Source: an uncultured bacterium
Lineage (GTDB): Bacteria; Myxococcota_A; UBA9160; SMWR01
Length of the DNA: 50,995 nucleotides
Assembly (NCBI GenBank): GCA_937937315.1
Contig: CALDCK010000047.1
Coordinates: 1-50,995, forward strand
Direction: 5' to 3'
In this document: positions 10,827 through 27,878 of the stretch, one piece after another
Layout: each line of letters opens with the position of its first letter
Position numbering within the stretch: the stretch's first letter is position 1
Program-made: the position numbers and the translations under genes
Notes under the pieces: model-generated
Told to the model about the DNA's origin: nothing
Database searches by the model: none
The model's input: only the letters and a program-made list of their open reading frames with translations

Positions 10827-12503
10827 GTGACGACACTGGACGGAGGCGCGCTCGTCGGGCTGGCGCTGGCGAGCGAGGGCGTCGAACGGGCGTTCCTGCT
10901 CTGCGGCGGCCACATCATGCCGGCCCTCTACGGCATGCGGAACGCTGGGATCGAGATCATCGACGTGCGCCACGAGTGCTCGGCGCTGTACGCGGCCATC
11001 GCCTATACGCGGGCGACCGGGAAGATCGCCGCAGTCATGACGACCGCGGGGCCTGGCGTCGGCAACACGGCCACCGGGATGATGGAGGCCGCCTCCATGA
11101 GCATTCCGGTCGTGCACATCGGCGGCGCCGTATCGCTCGCCATGCGCGACGCCGGCGACCTCCAGGACATGTCGACCCTGACGCTGATGGAGTCCGTGTC
11201 GAAGTGGGCGCGGAAGGTGACGCTGGTCGAGCGGATTCCCGAGTACGTCTCGATGGCGTTCCGGCACGCGACGGATGCGAGCCCCGGCCCGGTCTATCTC
11301 GAGATCCCCACGGATCTCCTCTTCAAGCAGGTGGACGAGGCGGAGGTGCGGATGGCGCAGCCGGGCACGAATCGCGCTCTGCCGGCCGGAGAGTCGTCCC
11401 TCGTCGACGCGGCTGCAGCGCTGCTCGTCGATGCGAAGCGGCCGGCGATGCTCTTCGACGAAGGTGCGCGTGCGACCCTCGGCTCCTACGCCGGCGCCGT
11501 GACCGAGCTTTCCGACTATCTGAAGATGCCGGTCGGGATCGCGGGCTCCGGCTGTCGTGGCGCGTTCGGCGATGAGTCGAGCAACCGCCTGCTCAAGACC
11601 AACGCGATCGGCGGTGCGGACGTGGTCCTGACGATGGGGTGCCGCTTCGACTTCCGGCTGGGCTCGGGCCGCTTCATTCCGAAGGACGCGAAGATCATCC
11701 AGGTCCACACCGACACGCCGCAGATCGGGTTCAACGTCCGGGCGGACGTCGCGATTGCCGGCGGCGCGGGGCCGGTCGCCCGGCAGCTCCTCGATGCCGT
11801 CAAGACGAGGCGGGACCCCTTGGAGGGGGACTCCTGGGTCGGACCTGTGAGCCCCACCACGACCGCGGATCTTCCCGCCGACTTCCACGACGCCAAGGGG
11901 CCGATCCATCCCGCCCGCTGTGCGGGCGAGGTGGCGAAGTTCCTCGAGGCCGAGGGTCGCAACTGGTCTCTGGTGATGGATGGCGGCGAGGCGTCCGTGT
12001 GGATGGGCGTTGCGGCCACGGCCTACCAGCCGGGTCAGCTCCATGCGACGGGCCCGAACGGCACCATCGGTACCGGCCCCGGCCTGGTCATCGGCGCCTG
12101 GGCGGCAAACCGCGAGCCCGTGCTCTGGTACACGGGCGATGGCAGCTTCGGCTTCTACGCGATGGAGATGGACACGATGGCGCGACTCGGGATTCCCGTG
12201 GTCTGCGTGATCTCGAACGACTCGAGCTGGGGCATGATCAGCCTGGTCGAGAAGTACGTCCGGCCCGACGAGATCGAGCAGCGCGGATCCTGCAATACGG
12301 ACCTGCATCCCATGCGCGCCTACGAGAGGATGGTCGACATGTGGGACGGCTACGGCGAGCAGGTCACGGACCCGGAGAAGATCCTTCCGGCGATCCAGCG
12401 CGCCGCCGCCAACGGTCGACCCTCGATCGTCAACGTCCAGGTCGACAACGAGAGCCTGTCTCCGTTCATCGCGCCCTACGCGCAGATGATGAAGGGGGAG
12501 TGA
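10827..12503 (+). CDS. Thiamine diphosphate-dependent enzyme (acetolactate synthase-like; 2-hydroxyacyl-CoA lyase/benzaldehyde lyase-like)
   Basis: LCGGHI, DVRHE, TAGPG, PGPVYLEIP, GDGSFGF...ISND ThDP motif; GTG start after GGGAGG. Confidence 0.9.
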   Translation: MTTLDGGALVGLALASEGVERAFLLCGGHIMPALYGMRNAGIEIIDVRHECSALYAAIAYTRATGKIAAVMTTAGPGVGNTATGMMEAASMSIPVVHIGGAVSLAMRDAGDLQDMSTLTLMESVSKWARKVTLVERIPEYVSMAFRHATDASPGPVYLEIPTDLLFKQVDEAEVRMAQPGTNRALPAGESSLVDAAAALLVDAKRPAMLFDEGARATLGSYAGAVTELSDYLKMPVGIAGSGCRGAFGDESSNRLLKTNAIGGADVVLTMGCRFDFRLGSGRFIPKDAKIIQVHTDTPQIGFNVRADVAIAGGAGPVARQLLDAVKTRRDPLEGDSWVGPVSPTTTADLPADFHDAKGPIHPARCAGEVAKFLEAEGRNWSLVMDGGEASVWMGVAATAYQPGQLHATGPNGTIGTGPGLVIGAWAANREPVLWYTGDGSFGFYAMEMDTMARLGIPVVCVISNDSSWGMISLVEKYVRPDEIEQRGSCNTDLHPMRAYERMVDMWDGYGEQVTDPEKILPAIQRAAANGRPSIVNVQVDNESLSPFIAPYAQMMKGE

Positions 12504-19218: not shown

Positions 19219-20400
19219 ATGAATGAACAGCCCCCCGTGGGCGCGCGACGGCGCCGGGTGCAGCCCTGGAAGCTCCTGCTCGGGTGGCCGTGGCTCCTGT
19301 CCTGCACGGCGGTATCTCCGACGCCGGATCTGGCGCGATCCCCTGCACCCTCCCCGGAAGCCGTCGCTGCGGCATCCCCCCAAGCCGTTGCTGCGGCGCC
19401 CCCCGCCGGCGTAACCATCGTCGATCCGGGCCACGGCTCCACCGCTCTGGCGGCGGGCTCGCCGGGCGCCTCTCAGCTCTCGGGCATCGTCTATGCCGGG
19501 GCGGATCGCTACTACGCGATCAGCGATGCCGGCGCCGTGCTCTTCGAGCTCTCCATTCAGATCGACCCGGCCAGCGCCGCGATCCTCTCCGCCTCGGTCG
19601 TGGACTCCCAGGTGTTGGCATCCGGCAGCGACCTCGAGGGGCTCGTCCATCATCCACTCGGCGGCTCGGTGCTGGCGGCCGACGAGGCCGGTCCTGCCAT
19701 CCGCGAGTACCGGCTCTCCGATGGCGCGGAGCTCTCGAGCGTGGCGCTTCCCCCGGTCTACGCCCAGGTGCGCAGCAATCTGAGCCTCGAGTCGCTCTCG
19801 ATGCGGGTGGCGGCGAGCGGCAGTGACGATGCGCTCTGGACGGCGAACGAAGAGGCCCTCGCGGTCGACGGACCGACTGCGACTGCGAGCGCAGGAACCC
19901 TCGTCCGCCTCCAGCGCTTCGACGCGACCTTTGCGCCGGATGGCCAGTGGGCCTACCTCACCGATCCCTATCCCGGCGCTCCCTTCCTCGGCCAGGAGCG
20001 CAGCGGTGTCTCCGACCTGCTCGCGCTTCCCGACGGCGAGCTCCTGGTCCTCGAGCGCAGCTTCAGCTCCGCGCTCTTTCGTGCGCGTCTCTACCAGGTG
20101 GATTTCGACGGTGCGACGGACACCTCGGCTCTCGCGAGCCTCGCGACGGATCCCTTCACGCCGGTTGGGAAGACGCTGCTCTGGGAGCGGACCGGAGTCC
20201 TCGAGAACTTCGAAGGCCTGACCCTCGGACCCCCCCTCGACGCCGGCGATCAGGGCCTGCTGCTCGTCTCGGACAACGGAAGTGGGGCGCCGCAGAGCCT
20301 CTACCCGCTGCGCATCTCCGCGGTTCCGGAGCCGGGGGCCACGACCTCCCTGCTCGTGGGCGTCCTGGGCCTCGTCGCCCTGGCCCGAGCACGCAGCTAA
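19219..20400 (+). CDS. Phytase-like/esterase-like beta-propeller protein with PEP-CTERM sorting signal
   Basis: LSGI..YYAISD, DLEG, NLSLESL, LVLERSF, NFEGLTLGP, LVSDN; C-terminal VPEP + TM + basic tail; start uncertain. Confidence 0.85.
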   Translation: MNEQPPVGARRRRVQPWKLLLGWPWLLSCTAVSPTPDLARSPAPSPEAVAAASPQAVAAAPPAGVTIVDPGHGSTALAAGSPGASQLSGIVYAGADRYYAISDAGAVLFELSIQIDPASAAILSASVVDSQVLASGSDLEGLVHHPLGGSVLAADEAGPAIREYRLSDGAELSSVALPPVYAQVRSNLSLESLSMRVAASGSDDALWTANEEALAVDGPTATASAGTLVRLQRFDATFAPDGQWAYLTDPYPGAPFLGQERSGVSDLLALPDGELLVLERSFSSALFRARLYQVDFDGATDTSALASLATDPFTPVGKTLLWERTGVLENFEGLTLGPPLDAGDQGLLLVSDNGSGAPQSLYPLRISAVPEPGATTSLLVGVLGLVALARARS

Positions 20401-22121
20401 TCCGCCGGCGCCTCGTGTGGCGCCGATCGTCGCTGTCGGGCCCGCTCGATCGCGGGGCGCACCTCGCGCGCGAGGTAGTCCTCGATCAGCGCATCGTAGT
20501 AGCCGGTATTGAGCCGCCAGATCTCCCGCAGGCGCGCGCCGTCGAGTAGGGGGCCGCGGGTCACGAGTCGGACCTTGTCGTAGTAGGTCTTCAGGCTCGG
20601 GTCCTTCAGGAGATTCCCGCCCCCGGCCACCGACGCGACGTAGCCCTCGGGGATCCGGCGCAGGAAGTGTCCCGACTTCCACTCCTCGATGCGCGCGGGT
20701 CGCATGGCCGGGAGCCGCGCGAGCAGCGGGTCGGTGAGACCGACCCGATCGATCACGAACTTGCGGGGGCCGGCGGCGTAACCGAAGTAGCCGATCGCCT
20801 CGCCGTGCATGAATCCGCCCACGTGCACTCGCTGCGGGCTCGCGCGGAACTGAAGCCCTCCCTGGTACCAGAGATTGTCGGGCCCGTAGGTGGCGCCGGG
20901 CTTCCAGTTGCTCGTCAGCGGGACGAAGTCGGGATAGATGAACTTCTTGGCGTCGATGTAGCTGCGTGCAGCGAGGAGCTCGTCCTCTCCGAGCGGCCGC
21001 GAGCGGAAGAGGGTGCGTTCGGAGTCGTAGGCCTTCGTTCCGAACTTGATGGCGGCCGCCGGGTTCAGGACGTTGAAGGCGAGCAGAGCCGCCCCGATTC
21101 CCGCGGCTCCCCTGCGGCTGTCGAGCACGTGGACGAAGAGCCCGATCGCCAGGAAGAGGGGCACGGCCGCGAAGCGTCCGGTCAGGTGGGTGGCGGAGCC
21201 GGCGTAGAGCGCCACGTAGACGAGGTAAGCGACCACGCCGGCGTAGAGCGCGAGACAGGCGCGGTCTCGTCTGCGCAGGCAGAGTGCGATCCCGGCCGCC
21301 ATCAGGGCGTAGAGAGGGAGGTCCCACTCGGCGCTGTTGCGCAGGTAGTCGAGGCCCCGTTCCAGGCGCCAGGCAGCGGGAAAGCCGGTAGCGGAGAGCT
21401 TCGCATAGGACGTATTCGGGAAGACGGACCCGTAGTAGAGGAGCGAGAAGCCGAGCCAGGCTGCGGCCGGCACGGTGGCGGCCGCGGCCTTCGCCCACGC
21501 GGCCCGCGAGAGCGCGCGCCCCCGGATCGCGGCCCACCCCAGGAGCGCCGGTGCGTAGAGAAGGATCGTGTCCTGGCGATTCAAGAAGGCCAGGGTGGCG
21601 AAGAGCGAGAGCCCCACGAAGCGGCTCTCCAGGCGCCACCGCGGCGACAGCAGGCAGATGGCAAAGGCGGTGGCGAGAAGATACGAGAGCGGATTCTCGA
21701 GCCCCGAAGACGCGTAGTCGATCACCGCCTTCGACGAGAGCAGGGCCAGGACCGTGAGGGGGACCTTCCAGAGATCGCGGCGGAACCCGTCGGTCGCGAG
21801 CCAGGCCATTCCGCCGACAGCCGCCAGGGAGAGCACGAGATTGGCGGAGATGGCGGTGAGATAGACCTCCTCCGTGAGGGCGACGAGGGCGGAGACGACG
21901 AAGAACCACAGGGGGTGGGTGTAGGCCTGGACGCGCTCGTCGACGTTCCAGCGCAGGCCGTGACCATTCAGGAAGTTCTCGACGCTGCGAAACGTGATGT
22001 AGGCGTCGTCGAGGATCCAGGCGTTGACGGCGAGGACGTAGACGAGGAGCAGGAGAGGGGCGAGCACCGCGAGGCCCAGCCGACCCAATCGCCGCGCGGC
22101 CCCCCTGGCGACTACGCTCAT
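20397..22121 (-). CDS. GT-C type multi-TM glycosyltransferase (AftB-like)
   Basis: DDAYITFRSVENFLNGHGLRWNVDERVQAYTHPLW, SSGLENPL, DRVGLTDPLLARLP, GHF.R.IP. Confidence 0.8.
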   Translation of the reverse strand: MSVVARGAARRLGRLGLAVLAPLLLLVYVLAVNAWILDDAYITFRSVENFLNGHGLRWNVDERVQAYTHPLWFFVVSALVALTEEVYLTAISANLVLSLAAVGGMAWLATDGFRRDLWKVPLTVLALLSSKAVIDYASSGLENPLSYLLATAFAICLLSPRWRLESRFVGLSLFATLAFLNRQDTILLYAPALLGWAAIRGRALSRAAWAKAAAATVPAAAWLGFSLLYYGSVFPNTSYAKLSATGFPAAWRLERGLDYLRNSAEWDLPLYALMAAGIALCLRRRDRACLALYAGVVAYLVYVALYAGSATHLTGRFAAVPLFLAIGLFVHVLDSRRGAAGIGAALLAFNVLNPAAAIKFGTKAYDSERTLFRSRPLGEDELLAARSYIDAKKFIYPDFVPLTSNWKPGATYGPDNLWYQGGLQFRASPQRVHVGGFMHGEAIGYFGYAAGPRKFVIDRVGLTDPLLARLPAMRPARIEEWKSGHFLRRIPEGYVASVAGGGNLLKDPSLKTYYDKVRLVTRGPLLDGARLREIWRLNTGYYDALIEDYLAREVRPAIERARQRRSAPHEAPAD

Positions 22122-23107: not shown

Positions 23108-24838
23108 TCAGGCCTCGGCGTCCTCGGGCTCGTGGATCATCACGCAGTTCTTGCCGGCGGCCTTGGCGCGGTAGAGCGCGGCATCGGCGTCGGCGAAGAG
23201 CTTGCTGCGGCTGTCCCGGTAGGCGGCGACTCCGATCGAGATCGTCATCCGCCGCGGTCGCTTCGTCTCGTCCACGATGAAGGAGGACTCCGCGACCTTG
23301 GTGCGCAGCTTCTCGCCCAGCAGAGCCGCCCCGGGTGCGTTGGTGGTCGTGGCCACGATCACGAACTCCTCACCTCCGTAGCGGGCCAGCAGATCGGTCT
23401 CCCGCACGGACTCTCGCAGGATCTGCGCCAGCTGTCTCAGGAACTCGTCGCCGGCGGCGTGGCCGAAGCTGTCGTTCAGCTTCTTGAAGTCGTCGATGTC
23501 GATGATGAGCATGGACAGGCCCAGGCCGGCCCGGCTCAGCCGCTTCTCCTCGCGTCGGAGCTGATCCTGGAAATAGCGGTGATTGTTGAGCTCGGTGAGA
23601 CCGTCGGTGACGGAGAGCCTCGAGAGGATCTGGTGCTCCTTCTGGAATGCCTGGTTCTGCTCGCTCAGGGCGCGCAGATTCTGCTCGCGCTGCTGATGAT
23701 CGGCGAGGAGCTTCGCCGTCATCCCGTTGAAGGCCCGGAAGAGCGCGCCCACCGGACCGAGCAGGCGACCGGCCGGGAGCTGGACGTCGAAGTCCCCGGC
23801 GGTCACTCGCCGAATGGCCTTGGTGACGGCGACCAGGGGTCGCACCGACCGCCCCGCCATCATCGAGGCGAGTGTTCCCATGCCGAGGATCAGACACCCG
23901 CTCACGAACACGAGTCCGGGCAGGATGACCGCGAGGGGCGCGAAGGCCTGCTCCACGCCCTGCTGCACGACGAGGGTCCAGCCGAGATCCTCGAGGGGCA
24001 GCGCGCTCGCCAGAGCCCAGGCGAGGGGAGTCTCGCCCGCGCGGCGGATCAGATGGGCGCCGGGAGCGTCGGCGGCGTCGCGTCGATCGCGCGGGATGGA
24101 CGCCAGCTCGACACCGACCCCCACCCCGGTCTCGGCCAGGATGCGATCCCCGGCGTCGAGGATCCGGACGGACCCGGCCCCGGCCAGCTGCTCGGCATGG
24201 AGGCTCTCGGCCATCCGCTCCGGGTGGAGCAGGCCGTGGATGGAGCCCGGGGATCCCAGCTTCGCATCGCGGAGGGGGCTCGAGACGATCGCCAGGGGCA
24301 TCCCTTCCCTCGGCTCGACGATCTGGATGGCGGTGTCGTCGCTCGAGGTGAGGGCCCGACGCAGGTCTGCCGAGCGCATGGCCTCGCTCAGTCCCGAGTC
24401 GAGGGCGCGCTTCGGCATCGCCACGGCCATGAGCTCGTCGAAGCTCACGCCTTCGCCGGCTGCGGCGAGGGGATCACCCTCCGGTGTCAGAACGAGCAGG
24501 CCGGAGAAGGAGCGGGAACGGGTCAGATGCTCGGTGAGACCGAGGGAGAGATCCGTGTGGGAACGGCGCAGCGCCATGTGTCGGAGCGTGGCGTCGCCCG
24601 CGATCGCCTCGATCTCGGCGCCTCCGTCCGAGACGAGCCGATTCAGGTGCTCGGCGCTCCAGCGCAGCGCCGTCGCCTGGGCTTCCTCGGCCCGCTCGCG
24701 AGCGAGATGATAGGTCGCGAAGGCGGCGAGCCCGCCCAGGGTGATGGAGCACACCACCGCGGACAGAACGGTGAGACGGACCATTCTGCGACCGATGCCA
24801 CCCTTGGGCAGCACTTCATTCTCCGTCGACTTCGCCAT
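23108..24838 (-). CDS. Membrane sensor diguanylate cyclase (periplasmic Cache-like domain, HAMP, GGDEF)
   Basis: Two TM segments, HAMP-like linker, TDGLTELNN, DIDDFKKLND.FGH, RETD I-site, GGEEF; RBS GGGAGGA. Confidence 0.92.
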   Translation of the reverse strand: MAKSTENEVLPKGGIGRRMVRLTVLSAVVCSITLGGLAAFATYHLARERAEEAQATALRWSAEHLNRLVSDGGAEIEAIAGDATLRHMALRRSHTDLSLGLTEHLTRSRSFSGLLVLTPEGDPLAAAGEGVSFDELMAVAMPKRALDSGLSEAMRSADLRRALTSSDDTAIQIVEPREGMPLAIVSSPLRDAKLGSPGSIHGLLHPERMAESLHAEQLAGAGSVRILDAGDRILAETGVGVGVELASIPRDRRDAADAPGAHLIRRAGETPLAWALASALPLEDLGWTLVVQQGVEQAFAPLAVILPGLVFVSGCLILGMGTLASMMAGRSVRPLVAVTKAIRRVTAGDFDVQLPAGRLLGPVGALFRAFNGMTAKLLADHQQREQNLRALSEQNQAFQKEHQILSRLSVTDGLTELNNHRYFQDQLRREEKRLSRAGLGLSMLIIDIDDFKKLNDSFGHAAGDEFLRQLAQILRESVRETDLLARYGGEEFVIVATTTNAPGAALLGEKLRTKVAESSFIVDETKRPRRMTISIGVAAYRDSRSKLFADADAALYRAKAAGKNCVMIHEPEDAEA

Positions 24839-24978
24839 GCTCCTCCCGAACGTCGCGGCATCCCTCATCGACGAGACGAGGCGCCGGCTTGACACCGCGG
24901 GGTGTCCCTTTTCGGTGTCGGAGGAGGGCTCGGCTTCAAGCTCAGGGGGGTGCGTGTCGATGAGATAGGAACCCGAGA

Positions 24979-26976
24979 ATGCTCAGTCTTTCCATCCGGA
25001 ATCGCGTTCGCGGCCTCGCGCGTCCGACGGCGGCCTCGCTGATCGGGTTGCTGCTGCTCGCCCCGGCGGCTCCCGCGGCGCCGACCCGGCCCGGTCCCAT
25101 CCCCGCGGAACGCCTGGTCTTCCTCCTCCAGTACATCGCCCTCGACTACGGGTTGGCGGTCGAGGAGGGGGAGATCGCGAGCCCCTTCGAGTACGAGGAG
25201 ATGCTCCGGTTCAGCCAGCTCCTGGTGGACGAGAGCGAGGCGTTGCGCTCGCGCGGGGCCTCGGCGGAGACCGGGGCCGGCCTCTCGGAGCTGCGGGAGC
25301 GTATTCGCGATCGGAGGCCCTGGGACGGCGTGCGAGAGCTCGCCACCGCCCTCGCGGCCGAGCTGGCCGCGGAGCTGGACCTGGTCACCCTGCCGGCCTC
25401 GACACCGGACGTCGAGCGTGGACGTCGTTTCTACCTGCGTACGTGTGCCGCCTGTCACGGGCTGAGGGGGCGTGGGGACGGTCCCTCCGCGGCCGAGCAG
25501 GATCCGCCGCCCACCGCCTTCGACGGGCCGCGCATGAACCGGGTTACGCCCCACCAGGTGGTCGGCGCCGTCGAGTTCGGCATCGAGGGCACGGCCATGC
25601 CCGCCTTCGGAGCGAGCCTGGACCGTGCGAAGCTCTGGGACATCGCATTCTTCGTCATGACCCTGCGCTCGGGATTTGCGCCCCATCCGCCGGAGCTCCC
25701 GCTTCCGATCACCCTGGCGGATCTGGCCGGGCGTTCGAACGAGGAGCTGCTGGCCGCGGCGCAGGAGGTCGACGCGAGCGCCCACCCCGCCTACATCGAT
25801 CACCTGCGGGCGACTCCGGCCGAGGCGCAGGGACCGGTCGTGCCCCGGTCTGCCGCCGCCGTCGATTCCACCCCGCGCGTGGTCCTGGACCCGCAGAGCG
25901 ACCTCGAGGTCGCGCTTCGGCTCCAGGGCGCCTTCGCCGCCGTCGCAGAGGCCGTCGCGCCCAGCGTGGTGGGGGTGACGGGGCTGGTGCGGAGCGACGC
26001 GTCGCCCACCTCGGACGCCGGCCCCGGCGCCTGGCGCGAGGGCAGCGTCGAGGAGCGCCTCTATCCCGGGCTTCGGCCCGCGCGCAGCGGAAGCGGGTTC
26101 TTCGTCAGCGCCGACGGTCGGATCCTCACCGCCCAACGTCTCCTGATTGACGAGAGCGACCAGCCGGTCGAGGCCGTCGACATCGAGCTCCACGACGGCC
26201 GGCACCGGACCGCGCGAATCGTCGCCACCGAGCCCACCATCGATCTCGCCGTCGTTGCGCTCGAAGAGTCCCAGTGGGCGCCGACGCCGAAGCTGAATCC
26301 GGTGCGGATCGGAGAGAGTGATCGGGTCCGGGTGGGCCATTGGGTCATCGCCCTGGGAAACCCCCCGGGCCCCGGCAGGACCTTCGCGGTGGGAACGCTG
26401 TCGAGTCCGCCGGAGCGCCAGTGTTACCAGGGTGATCTCACCGCCACCCTCATGCAGACCTCGCTGGACGTTCCGATGGGCGGCCACGGGGGCCCGCTCC
26501 TGAACATCGAGGGGGACGTCGTGGGCATGATGGTGCCCGGCCCCGGTGTCGACCTCGCGGCACTCTTCGCCTCCGAGCGGGAGCTGCGCTCGGCGCTACC
26601 CATGGATCTGGCGATGGCCATCTACGAGCCCCTCGTCCGGAGCGAGACCAATCGCTCTCCGTGGCTGGGATTCTCGGTGCTCGAGCTCGACGCGGCGCCG
26701 GCGAGGCGGGTGGATGGGAGCGACGGGTCACCGCAGACCGGCGTCTACATCGACGACGTCTTCGATCCCAGCCCCGCTTCGGTCGCGGGCATCCGGGTGG
26801 GCGACGCGCTGCTCGCGATCGACGGGAATCGTCTCGACTCCGTGGGCGCGTTCCAGCGCTGGCTGTATCGGTCGGGAATCGGGCGCGAGATCGCGCTCTC
26901 GATCTGGCGCGGAGGCGAGATCCTCGAGAGGCGGGTGGTGGTGGAGGAGCGCCCCGCGGCCGTCGCGCCGCGCTGA
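24979..26976 (+). CDS. Secreted cytochrome c / HtrA-like trypsin-fold / PDZ fusion protein with degenerate catalytic triad
   Basis: Signal peptide; LLQYIALDY..A...G....EYEEM; CAACHG and GIEGTAMPAF; APSVVGV, SGSGF, DLAVV, ALGNP, GGPLLNIEGDVVG; PWLGF...SPA..AGIRVGD PDZ. Confidence 0.85.
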   Translation: MLSLSIRNRVRGLARPTAASLIGLLLLAPAAPAAPTRPGPIPAERLVFLLQYIALDYGLAVEEGEIASPFEYEEMLRFSQLLVDESEALRSRGASAETGAGLSELRERIRDRRPWDGVRELATALAAELAAELDLVTLPASTPDVERGRRFYLRTCAACHGLRGRGDGPSAAEQDPPPTAFDGPRMNRVTPHQVVGAVEFGIEGTAMPAFGASLDRAKLWDIAFFVMTLRSGFAPHPPELPLPITLADLAGRSNEELLAAAQEVDASAHPAYIDHLRATPAEAQGPVVPRSAAAVDSTPRVVLDPQSDLEVALRLQGAFAAVAEAVAPSVVGVTGLVRSDASPTSDAGPGAWREGSVEERLYPGLRPARSGSGFFVSADGRILTAQRLLIDESDQPVEAVDIELHDGRHRTARIVATEPTIDLAVVALEESQWAPTPKLNPVRIGESDRVRVGHWVIALGNPPGPGRTFAVGTLSSPPERQCYQGDLTATLMQTSLDVPMGGHGGPLLNIEGDVVGMMVPGPGVDLAALFASERELRSALPMDLAMAIYEPLVRSETNRSPWLGFSVLELDAAPARRVDGSDGSPQTGVYIDDVFDPSPASVAGIRVGDALLAIDGNRLDSVGAFQRWLYRSGIGREIALSIWRGGEILERRVVVEERPAAVAPR

Positions 26977-27878
26977 TCCTCGACGTCGCGGAGGAAGGAC
27001 ACCAGAGCGCTGGCGATCTGGGCCGGCCGTTCCGGCAGCAACGCGTGTCCGGCGCCGCGGATCGGGACCAGGCGCACCCGATCCGGGAACTCGGCGAGCA
27101 GCGCTTCACCCGCCGTCGCCGGCGGCGCGATCGCGTCCTGGTCGGCCTGGAGGACGAGCATGGGCGCTCGCCCTCCGGCCCAGAAGTCGGCGCTCTGGCC
27201 GGTGCGCACGGCCTCGCCCTGGGCGAGTCCGCCCCACAGCCACCAGCCGGTCTGCCAGTGCTCCGGGATCTCGTTCTCGGCGGCGAAGAAGGCGCGTCGC
27301 AGCTCCGGCTCGCGCCGCGACCAGGGCAGGAAGGTCGAGCTCGAGACGAGGATCGCCTCGGTGAGCCGCGGGGGGACGGGCTCGCGTCCGCCGGCGGCGA
27401 TCAGCGCGACGCTGCGCGTGCGTTCCGGGTAGCGGGCCGCGAAGGTCCGCGCGATCTGGTTGCCGAAGGCGTGGCCCACGACGTGAACCGACTCGCGAGA
27501 TGCGAGCTCCGCAGCGCTGAGCACGACGTCGACGTCGCTGGCCAGGTCGGCTCGGGTGGGGCTCGCGAGGGGGCCGCCGCCGTCGCTGCCACCGATGCCC
27601 CGGGATTCGACGGCCAGGGTGCGGAAGCCTTCGCGGTGCAGGGTCTCGGCCAGCTCGTTGAAGTCGCTCACGGGGCGGGCAAAGCTCGCGAGCAGGACGA
27701 CGCAGGGCCCCGCTCCGCCGTCGTAGTAGGTGATCCCCAGATCGTTCGAGAATCCCCGCCCGGGAGTGCCCACCGCCGGGCGCGTGCCTCGGCCCTGGAG
27801 CGAGGCGCCGACGAAGTAGAGAGCGGCAACGAGGCAGAGCCCGACGATGCCGACCGTAGTCTTCACGGCACGGAGCAC
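26745..27878 (-). CDS. Alpha/beta-fold hydrolase-like protein with N-terminal anchor and GHAFG elbow
   Basis: RGIGGS, VVGHAFGN, QADQD, GAGHALLPERP; C-terminal ~77 codons run antisense into the neighbour; start may be GTG 27866. Confidence 0.8.
   Translation of the reverse strand: MLRAVKTTVGIVGLCLVAALYFVGASLQGRGTRPAVGTPGRGFSNDLGITYYDGGAGPCVVLLASFARPVSDFNELAETLHREGFRTLAVESRGIGGSDGGGPLASPTRADLASDVDVVLSAAELASRESVHVVGHAFGNQIARTFAARYPERTRSVALIAAGGREPVPPRLTEAILVSSSTFLPWSRREPELRRAFFAAENEIPEHWQTGWWLWGGLAQGEAVRTGQSADFWAGGRAPMLVLQADQDAIAPPATAGEALLAEFPDRVRLVPIRGAGHALLPERPAQIASALVSFLRDVEDQRGATAAGRSSTTTRLSRISPPRQIESAISRPIPDRYSQRWNAPTESRRFPSIASSASPTRMPATEAGLGSKTSSM

Follow-up and report, generated by a model that had tools for sequence, protein, structure and literature searches.

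An undescribed protein family joining a PbrT-type cytochrome c module to an HtrA-PDZ half devoid of the catalytic serine

MamE and MamO are the nearest analogues of the protein described here. As far as the passages of PMC4794232 on these two proteins go, MamE is an active protease with magnetochrome CXXCH repeats between its protease and PDZ domains, and MamO is a dead trypsin fold that binds transition metals, its nucleophile replaced by Thr, and that also has a TauE transporter domain and a di-His site on its surface. Among iron systems, clusters of imelysin and DUF1111 peroxidase are presented, in the part of PMC3143127 that deals with them, as Fur-regulated, implicated in iron uptake and parallel to EfeUOB; pbrT is entered as ‘iron permease FTR1’ in a listing of PMC11647595. 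The window analysed here is a stretch of 50,995 nucleotides (nt), contig CALDCK010000047.1 of assembly GCA_937937315.1, from an uncultured bacterium of Myxococcota_A (UBA9160; SMWR01). It contains an open reading frame (ORF) at 24979..26976 on the plus strand whose 665-amino-acid product carries a class I cytochrome c in front of an HtrA-PDZ half that has lost its catalytic Ser and His. This is a member of a widespread and undescribed family combining two known kinds of protein, a pseudo-HtrA and a PbrT-type cytochrome module, and the family probably aids iron handling outside the cytoplasm.

The first-pass annotation, made from the sequence alone, had proposed a signal peptide, a helical segment, a cytochrome c, a trypsin-like domain and a single PDZ domain. 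Pfam searches and alignment bear out this architecture and the positions of its motifs. The layout of the gene is as follows; N-module denotes the part formed by the helical domain, the cytochrome and the helices that trail it, and pLDDT the per-residue confidence of the AlphaFold2 (AF2) model.

24979..25083 (+), residues 1-35: signal peptide region, basic n-region and hydrophobic stretch LIGLLLLAPAAPAAP, read off the sequence
25105..25374 (+), residues 43-132: helical domain of the N-module, AF2 pLDDT 96-98
Within it (+): conserved residues Y52, D56-Y57 (nt 25144-25149) and E71-x-x-E74 (nt 25189-25200)
25408..25665 (+), residues 144-229: class I cytochrome c domain, from Pfam and Foldseek
25444-25458 (+), residues 156-160: haem motif CAACH
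25597-25599 (+): distal Met207, in GTAMP (residues 204-208)
25714..25833 (+), residues 246-285: C-terminal helices of the N-module, from alignment, common to N-only and FTR1-fused relatives
25834..25893 (+), residues 286-305: flexible linker, pLDDT <50 at 287-303
25894..26646 (+), residues 306-556: HtrA-type trypsin-fold pseudoprotease domain, from Pfam, alignment and Foldseek
26137-26139 (+): His site, R387, in TAQRL (residues 384-388, from nt 26128)
26242-26244 (+): Asp site, D422, at the start of DLAVV (residues 422-426)
26413..26430 (+): clade motif E479-R-Q-C482-Y483-Q484, start of loop L3
26485-26487 (+): Ser site, H503, in GGHGGP (residues 501-506, nt 26479-26496)
26659..26937 (+), residues 563-653: PDZ domain, Pfam PDZ_2 6.8e-10
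26659-26673 (+): carboxylate-binding loop P561-W-L-G-F565, whose aligned counterparts in solved HtrAs read WLGV and YIGV

Both halves are readily assigned. At residues 144-229, Pfam detects PF13442 Cytochrome_CBB3 (2.6e-10) and PF00034 Cytochrom_C (2.8e-8), each above its cut-off, and the presence of CxxCH and a distal Met within a cytochrome c fold is that of class I cytochromes c. Trypsin_2 is found at residues 371-517 (4.8e-24), and the combination of a trypsin fold with at least one PDZ domain, seen by Pfam and Foldseek alike, places the C-terminal half among the HtrA proteins. Consistently, phmmer matches canonical HtrA chains at E 1e-27, and the C-terminal half of the model retrieves DegQ, DegP and DegS by Foldseek at E about 1e-22. 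The full-length AlphaFold2 model, built on 56 relatives, has a mean pLDDT of 88.2; its weak regions include the first residues (39-68, low confidence, over residues 1-30) and the linker at 287-303. When the N-module is modelled separately (residues 36-290), pLDDT rises to 95.3 with a predicted template modelling (TM) score, pTM, of 0.91, and it appears as a helical bundle packed against the cytochrome domain and the trailing helices. Against the PDB, Foldseek relates the N-module to cytochromes c6 and c552 and to ACIII monohaem subunits (target TM 0.5-0.83); an ESM Atlas look-up with residues 36-140 gave only unnamed clusters with scores <0.9. The signal-peptide-like N-terminus indicates that the protein is exported. 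Covalent haem is also predicted, with indirect support from this N-terminus and from three Cytochrom_C_asm (cytochrome c maturation) genes in the same genome.

Alignment to solved DegP-like and HhoA chains equates R387 with the His site, D422 with Asp and H503 with Ser. Thus the reading of the motifs made at first sight, His and Ser lost and Asp kept, proves correct, and the query lacks the His-Asp-Ser triad of the TNxHV/D/GNSGG type. All NCBIfam HtrA models match it, all far under their cut-offs, the best being TIGR02037 with 151.3 bits versus 416.2. How general this loss is can be seen from the relatives. A word-index search of proteins gave 109 matches and a full scan of 1.84 billion representatives gave 162 at E <= 1e-30, far more than a chance ORF would have; 251 fetched proteins were then aligned to a hidden Markov model (HMM) of the family and grouped by the parts that they cover. 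In the full-length, fused group (n=88, query included), Ser occupies the nucleophile site once, and Tyr (40), Phe (18), Leu (16) and His (4) are found there, as are Ile, Val and Ala. The His site holds His in 50 and Arg in 9, the Asp site Asp in 56 and Asn in 19, while CxxCH and the distal Met are present in all 88. Among 48 Ser-less proteins restricted to the trypsin-PDZ part, some of them fragments, no Ser is left at that site (Tyr 26, His 1), the His site retains His in 26, the Asp site has Asp in 19 and Asn in 25, and neither haem motif nor Met exists. Finally, 37 Ser-bearing HtrAs from the same hit lists, equally without haem motif or Met, show Ser in 37, His in 37 and Asp in 35; this group was chosen by its Ser, so that its His and Asp counts alone serve as independent controls of the alignment.

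With Ser absent from 87 of the 88 fused homologues, no intact triad is retained in the family, and its loss is, as far as alignment can tell, a family trait and not a defect of the window gene. By the same alignment the HtrA half cannot be a serine protease. Labels such as ‘serine protease Do’, ‘S1-C serine protease’ or ‘S1-C serine protease/mono/diheme cytochrome c family protein’, under which these proteins stand in databases, are misleading, since the nucleophile is absent. The particular residues of the query are another matter. The first-pass annotation had supposed that the His at the Ser position could be a metal ligand and that the H-to-R change might be conserved; yet His stands at the Ser site in 4/88 fused and 1/48 stand-alone proteins, Tyr, Phe and Leu being usual, and Arg at the His site in 9/88 versus 50/88 with His, so that neither idea is supported. 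It is also very unlikely, and we give it almost no credit, that the domain would be an active peptidase using a non-canonical nucleophile. Such an enzyme could be imagined from the Gly-Gly-Pro of the oxyanion loop, kept in 86-87/88 fused members, from the 32/88 that keep both His and Asp, and from the invariant Cys482. But the nucleophile site is filled in 34/88 by Phe or Leu and in some others by Ile, Val or Ala, residues that are not nucleophilic, the query has no catalytic His, and Cys482 aligns to loop L3, outside the active-site pocket.

What the Ser-less proteins have kept is distinctive. C482, Y483 and Q484 are present in 88/88 fused and in 45-47/48 stand-alone proteins; in the 37 Ser-bearing HtrAs, Gln is found at 484 in 4, and Cys482 and Tyr483 are not among the commonest residues. 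Alignment to solved chains locates this Cys-Tyr-Gln at the start of L3, which we take to be the ‘sensor loop’ of HtrA loop nomenclature. E403, T490, Y630 and R658 are further clade-specific invariants, and P561, W562 and G564 of the PDZ loop are each conserved in 88/88 fused members. Given these invariants and the retained PDZ loop, the HtrA part seems to be under selection for something besides catalysis. An unrooted FastTree of 129 rows, covering the trypsin-PDZ region of all 85 trypsin-PDZ-only sequences and of every second fused one, separates a Ser-less clade of 91 rows, 44 fused and 47 stand-alone, from the 37 Ser-bearing HtrAs and one long-branch row with a support of 99. Two proteins of 874-875 amino acids, P0049 and P0051, carry extra zinc-ribbon-type domains (PF13240, PF12773, PF13248, PF13453) beside cytochrome c, trypsin and PDZ, which suggests a membrane-anchored form with a cytoplasmic part.

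The N-module is not confined to this fusion. It is encountered in three contexts: fused to the pseudoprotease, alone (an N-only group of 28, many of them truncated records) and ahead of an FTR1 permease. In the aligned set, 29 proteins of at least 500 amino acids bear it. FTR1 was identified in P0089 by a Pfam scan (PF03239, 9.6e-24) and in 12 by precomputed Pfam annotation, the other 17 being unscanned; P0089 matches the query at E 3e-55 with 45% identity. Residues Y52, D56, Y57, E71, Y72 and E74 are kept in 83-87/88 fused, 24-28/28 N-only and 26-29/29 long, FTR1-type proteins. A tblastn search of plasmids with the N-module returned 122 records, labelled FTR1 or ‘cytochrome c/FTR1 family iron permease’, many from metal-resistant Cupriavidus and Ralstonia. 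One of them, the FTR1 protein of Cupriavidus metallidurans pMOL30, matches residues 8-245 of 255, or 93% of the module, with 32.9% identity (E 1e-21); its gene adjoins those of a Cd/Pb-responsive regulator and of a heavy-metal P-type ATPase and so occupies the position of pbrT. The resemblance to PbrT/FTR1 fusions noted in the first-pass annotation is therefore genuine: the query possesses the PbrT-type N-terminal helical and cytochrome c module, and no FTR1 domain (PF03239) is found in it by Pfam, so that on this feature it is not an FTR1 permease. Glu-x-x-Glu is an iron-binding motif in Ftr1p and PmrB, and E71-x-x-E74 has, by analogy, the form of such motifs.

Gene context was analysed by searching the window, 80 metagenome loci and 4 loci from genomes with four HMMs (N-module, C-module, DHOR and imelysin); 16 loci with a match at a contig edge were omitted from the counts. 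A single ORF encodes the fusion in the window and 41 other loci (42 in all, falling into 40 clusters at 95% identity and 20 at 60%), which dispels the concern that it might be absent elsewhere. In 4 loci the gene is split at about the linker position, the N-module and the pseudoprotease being encoded by neighbouring genes that both start with a signal peptide. Stand-alone pseudoproteases could be assessed in 19 loci, each with at least 900 nt of upstream DNA. In 15/19 the next gene upstream, with the same orientation, encodes the di-haem oxidoreductase DHOR (PF06537, 2.6e-74); clustering reduces these 15 to 11 at 95% identity and to 5 at 60%. Imelysin (PF09375, 5.7e-56) precedes DHOR in 10 of these 15, a contig end cutting the other 5. 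As to the remaining 4/19, the DHOR pair is divergent in one, 5.5 kb off in one and not found in two. Co-encoding with imelysin and DHOR thus applies to the stand-alone relatives alone and not to the window gene. Another stand-alone copy is instructive. In locus L074 (9049-16099, same strand), downstream of a Ser-less HtrA-PDZ gene come the flavin transferase ApbE, an unassigned ORF, FMN_bind and an N-module/cytochrome c/FTR1 permease gene, which places the Ser-less gene within 7 kb of ApbE, FMN_bind and N-module/FTR1 genes. This may be a cluster for flavin-dependent metal reduction and uptake.

Some loci also encode, next to the imelysin-DHOR-pseudoHtrA operon but on the other strand, a small monohaem cytochrome c of about 160-170 amino acids with a signal-peptide-like start and a possible lipobox Cys:

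L084:2859-3362 (-), small monohaem cytochrome c
L087:421-897 (-), small monohaem cytochrome c
L089:7293-7814 (-), small monohaem cytochrome c

All the recurrent partners, N-module, DHOR and the small cytochrome of L084, L087 and L089, contain c-type haem. One could thus imagine a holdase for the assembly or quality control of c-type haem proteins, fused to its client here and placed beside its client DHOR elsewhere. We consider this decidedly unlikely, as a permanent fusion of chaperone and client in 42 loci would be unusual and the N-module works on FTR1 permeases without any HtrA-like part. It is quite unlikely, too, that the same scaffold would serve another metal (lead, copper or manganese), whether to take it up or to detoxify it, in the manner of PbrT within the pbr operon. 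Such a role would fit the resemblance of the N-module to a pMOL30 protein whose gene occupies the pbrT position beside a Cd/Pb regulator and a P-type ATPase, and also the many plasmid matches from metal-resistant Cupriavidus and Ralstonia. However, iron permease is the annotation of most N-module carriers, the window gene has no metal-resistance genes near it, and the stand-alone relatives sit with imelysin and DHOR, which the relevant part of PMC3143127 ties to iron.

In the window itself, the gene is preceded by a divergent GGDEF/HAMP gene with a long N-terminal sensor region (23108-24895, minus strand), separated by an intergenic gap of 83 nt. Downstream come a convergent alpha/beta hydrolase gene, then a TetR regulator and acyl-CoA dehydrogenases. 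L025, a metagenome contig of 109 kb with 78% identity, is fully syntenic and keeps the GGDEF/HAMP pairing; distant carriers share none of the window gene's neighbours. Further upstream, a 574-amino-acid multi-pass membrane-like protein (20397-22121, minus strand), without a Pfam match at E <= 0.001, has a counterpart in L025 at 79% identity. The hydrolase ORF (26745..27878, minus strand, 377 amino acids) overlaps the 3′ end of the fused gene by 232 nt (26745-26976); since its Pfam domain ends near residue 284, the overlap corresponds to a tail of about 90 amino acids, and a similar though shorter overlap exists in L025 (about 10908-11019).

This neighbourhood bears on the function first proposed for the protein, that of a redox- or metal-gated periplasmic chaperone or stress sensor in which the dead HtrA-PDZ half would bind unfolded proteins or C-terminal peptides and the haem would report redox state. 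DegP with its Ser mutated retains chaperone activity, and the query has kept the HtrA fold, the carboxylate-binding loop of the PDZ domain and a strongly conserved L3 sensor loop; moreover the sensor gene that adjoins it divergently does so in L025 as well. Still, we regard this function as unlikely. No envelope-stress genes were seen near the window gene, the GGDEF neighbour is not conserved outside close relatives, the recurrent partners of the clade are proteins of haem and iron systems and not stress regulators, and His503, the proposed gating ligand, exists in just 4/88. Gene contexts suggest something more specific than a chaperone or sensor, namely a partner of haem and iron-handling modules.

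We are half convinced that the protein is a non-proteolytic HtrA/PDZ scaffold whose haem module would bind metal and act in the oxidation or uptake of iron in the periplasm. Association is the ground for this proposal: the Ser-less clade is repeatedly fused to, split from or located beside c-type haem proteins, and these belong to metal systems of the FTR1 and imelysin types. In the N-module, a carboxylate cluster made of Asp-Tyr and Glu-x-x-Glu would be packed against the monohaem class I cytochrome c, bind a metal ion, most likely Fe(II), and exchange an electron with it via the haem, the direction of electron flow being itself presumed. Its role would be like that of EfeO/EfeB, or of imelysin/DHOR, beside FTR1-type permeases. 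The trypsin fold, unable to cut for want of a nucleophile, would form with the PDZ loop and the Cys-Tyr-Gln of L3 an oligomerising and docking platform that holds the haem module on a partner or ligand.

Several observations weigh against this scaffold model. The window gene stands alone between genes of the opposite strand, and, L025 aside, the neighbours of the fused form each recur in 4-5 loci at most. DHOR was detected in just 2/46 fused or split loci, about 4 kb downstream; the operon link is consequently limited to the stand-alone subclade, which is more divergent and represents 5 lineages at 60% identity. The genome that carries the window, 84.5% complete, gave no match to FTR1 (PF03239), imelysin (PF09375) or DHOR (PF06537). 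For the helical domain, Foldseek found no fold match in the PDB, only the cytochrome part being matched, and hhalign comparison of two helical stretches with imelysin and DHOR alignments remained at probabilities <1%. The Ser-less clade is defined by a quick FastTree alone. PbrT is a lead uptake protein and, by analogy, the metal need not be iron. Finally, the metal, the haem, the oligomer and the partner are all predictions.

A bolder extension can be put forward tentatively. Ser-less HtrA-PDZ proteins could be ancient and widespread, and form an unrecognised third component of haem-dependent systems, imelysin-DHOR clusters and PbrT-type cytochrome modules among them, that oxidise and take up iron in the periplasm; as such they would be a non-magnetotactic counterpart of MamE and MamO. 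The Cys-Tyr-Gln of L3 and the Tyr at the nucleophile site would then constitute a new metal or redox site, taking oxidised iron or an electron from the cytochrome and passing it to a PDZ-docked partner. Imelysin/DHOR and FTR1-type systems are common and their periplasmic chemistry is poorly understood, to judge from the relevant part of PMC3143127. The clade points to an overlooked component of these systems and offers a concrete protein for testing.

The fused gene is present in one copy in its own genome, beside three intact HtrAs with TNxHV and GNSGG, and is therefore not the housekeeping protease. Intact HtrA genes form tandem arrays, two to four genes long, in this genome (G000:C259) and in relatives, e.g. 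G005:C374 and G004:C125. Among 40 relatives of the same family or order, one has a full-length orthologue (G024, 60% identity) and two have fragments; 400 other sampled genomes of the phylum have none at E <= 1e-60. A scan of genome contigs with a single protein query gave 5 loci. Other carriers are metagenome-assembled genomes (MAGs) labelled Myxococcales, Limnocylindria and Polarisedimenticolia, and the stand-alone form was found in one Planctomycetota MAG.

Near-identical DNA occurs in 17 sequencing runs from 7 studies, the samples being sediments of marine, estuary and other origin. X3 and X10, contigs that come from two other studies, span codons 387 and 503 with no difference, so the unusual residues are not assembly errors. 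Contigs of four runs were aligned to the gene, and no single one among those listed bridges the domain junction, one ending and the next beginning at 25881; the case against a chimeric assembly accordingly rests on the 41 other fused loci. X3 and X10, which stem from independent runs, share an A>G change at position 26159 of the window, turning codon 394 from Asp to Gly; this polymorphism falls in the pseudoprotease domain but outside the triad positions. Two RNA-labelled libraries also yielded short contigs, identical or nearly so (X19, 25012-25278; X20, 26797-26985), which is no proof of transcription.

The first-pass annotation knew of no protein with this architecture, and our search of the full-text literature found no description of a cytochrome c joined to a dead HtrA-PDZ either. 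Term look-ups in two surveys of PDZ and serine-protease architectures, PMC6411480 and PMC2605481, found no such arrangement in the parts so covered. The comparison must then be made piece by piece. With DegP, DegQ, DegS and HhoA, the protein shares the fold, the PDZ domain and the loop layout, but it lacks the catalytic Ser and His, stays below the NCBIfam cut-offs and has an N-terminal cytochrome module added. With PbrT-type cytochrome c/FTR1 permeases, the whole N-module is homologous, from the helical domain through the monohaem cytochrome c to the trailing helices, whereas the HtrA-like pseudoprotease and PDZ take the place of the FTR1 membrane permease. The resemblance to imelysin (M75)-DHOR/DUF1111 clusters and to EfeUOB is one of layout, that is, a helical metal-binding protein, a c-type haem protein and a third component; the window protein itself contains neither imelysin nor DHOR domain and its genome shows neither gene.

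MamE offers the same association of an HtrA trypsin fold, c-type haem and PDZ in an exported, iron-linked protein. It differs from the window protein, in which the triad is dead and the haem is carried by an N-terminal class I cytochrome c with the sole CxxCH. The MamE equivalog NF040960 matches weakly at 4.8e-20, with 71.7 bits versus a cut-off of 800, and no magnetosome genes were seen. MamO, as well as LimO, has in common with it a degenerate triad in an HtrA-like fold and a non-catalytic role in iron handling, but MamO has no haem and no PDZ arrangement like that of the window protein. The query gives 23.7 bits with the MamO equivalog NF040961 (cut-off 800) and Pfam finds no TauE in it. 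Nested among ordinary HtrA-PDZ proteins and marked by its own Cys-Tyr-Gln, the Ser-less clade appears from its sequences to have arisen separately from MamO. It extends the precedent set by MamO, the reuse of a trypsin fold for metal handling, to uncultured bacteria of sediment and soil outside the magnetotactic groups.

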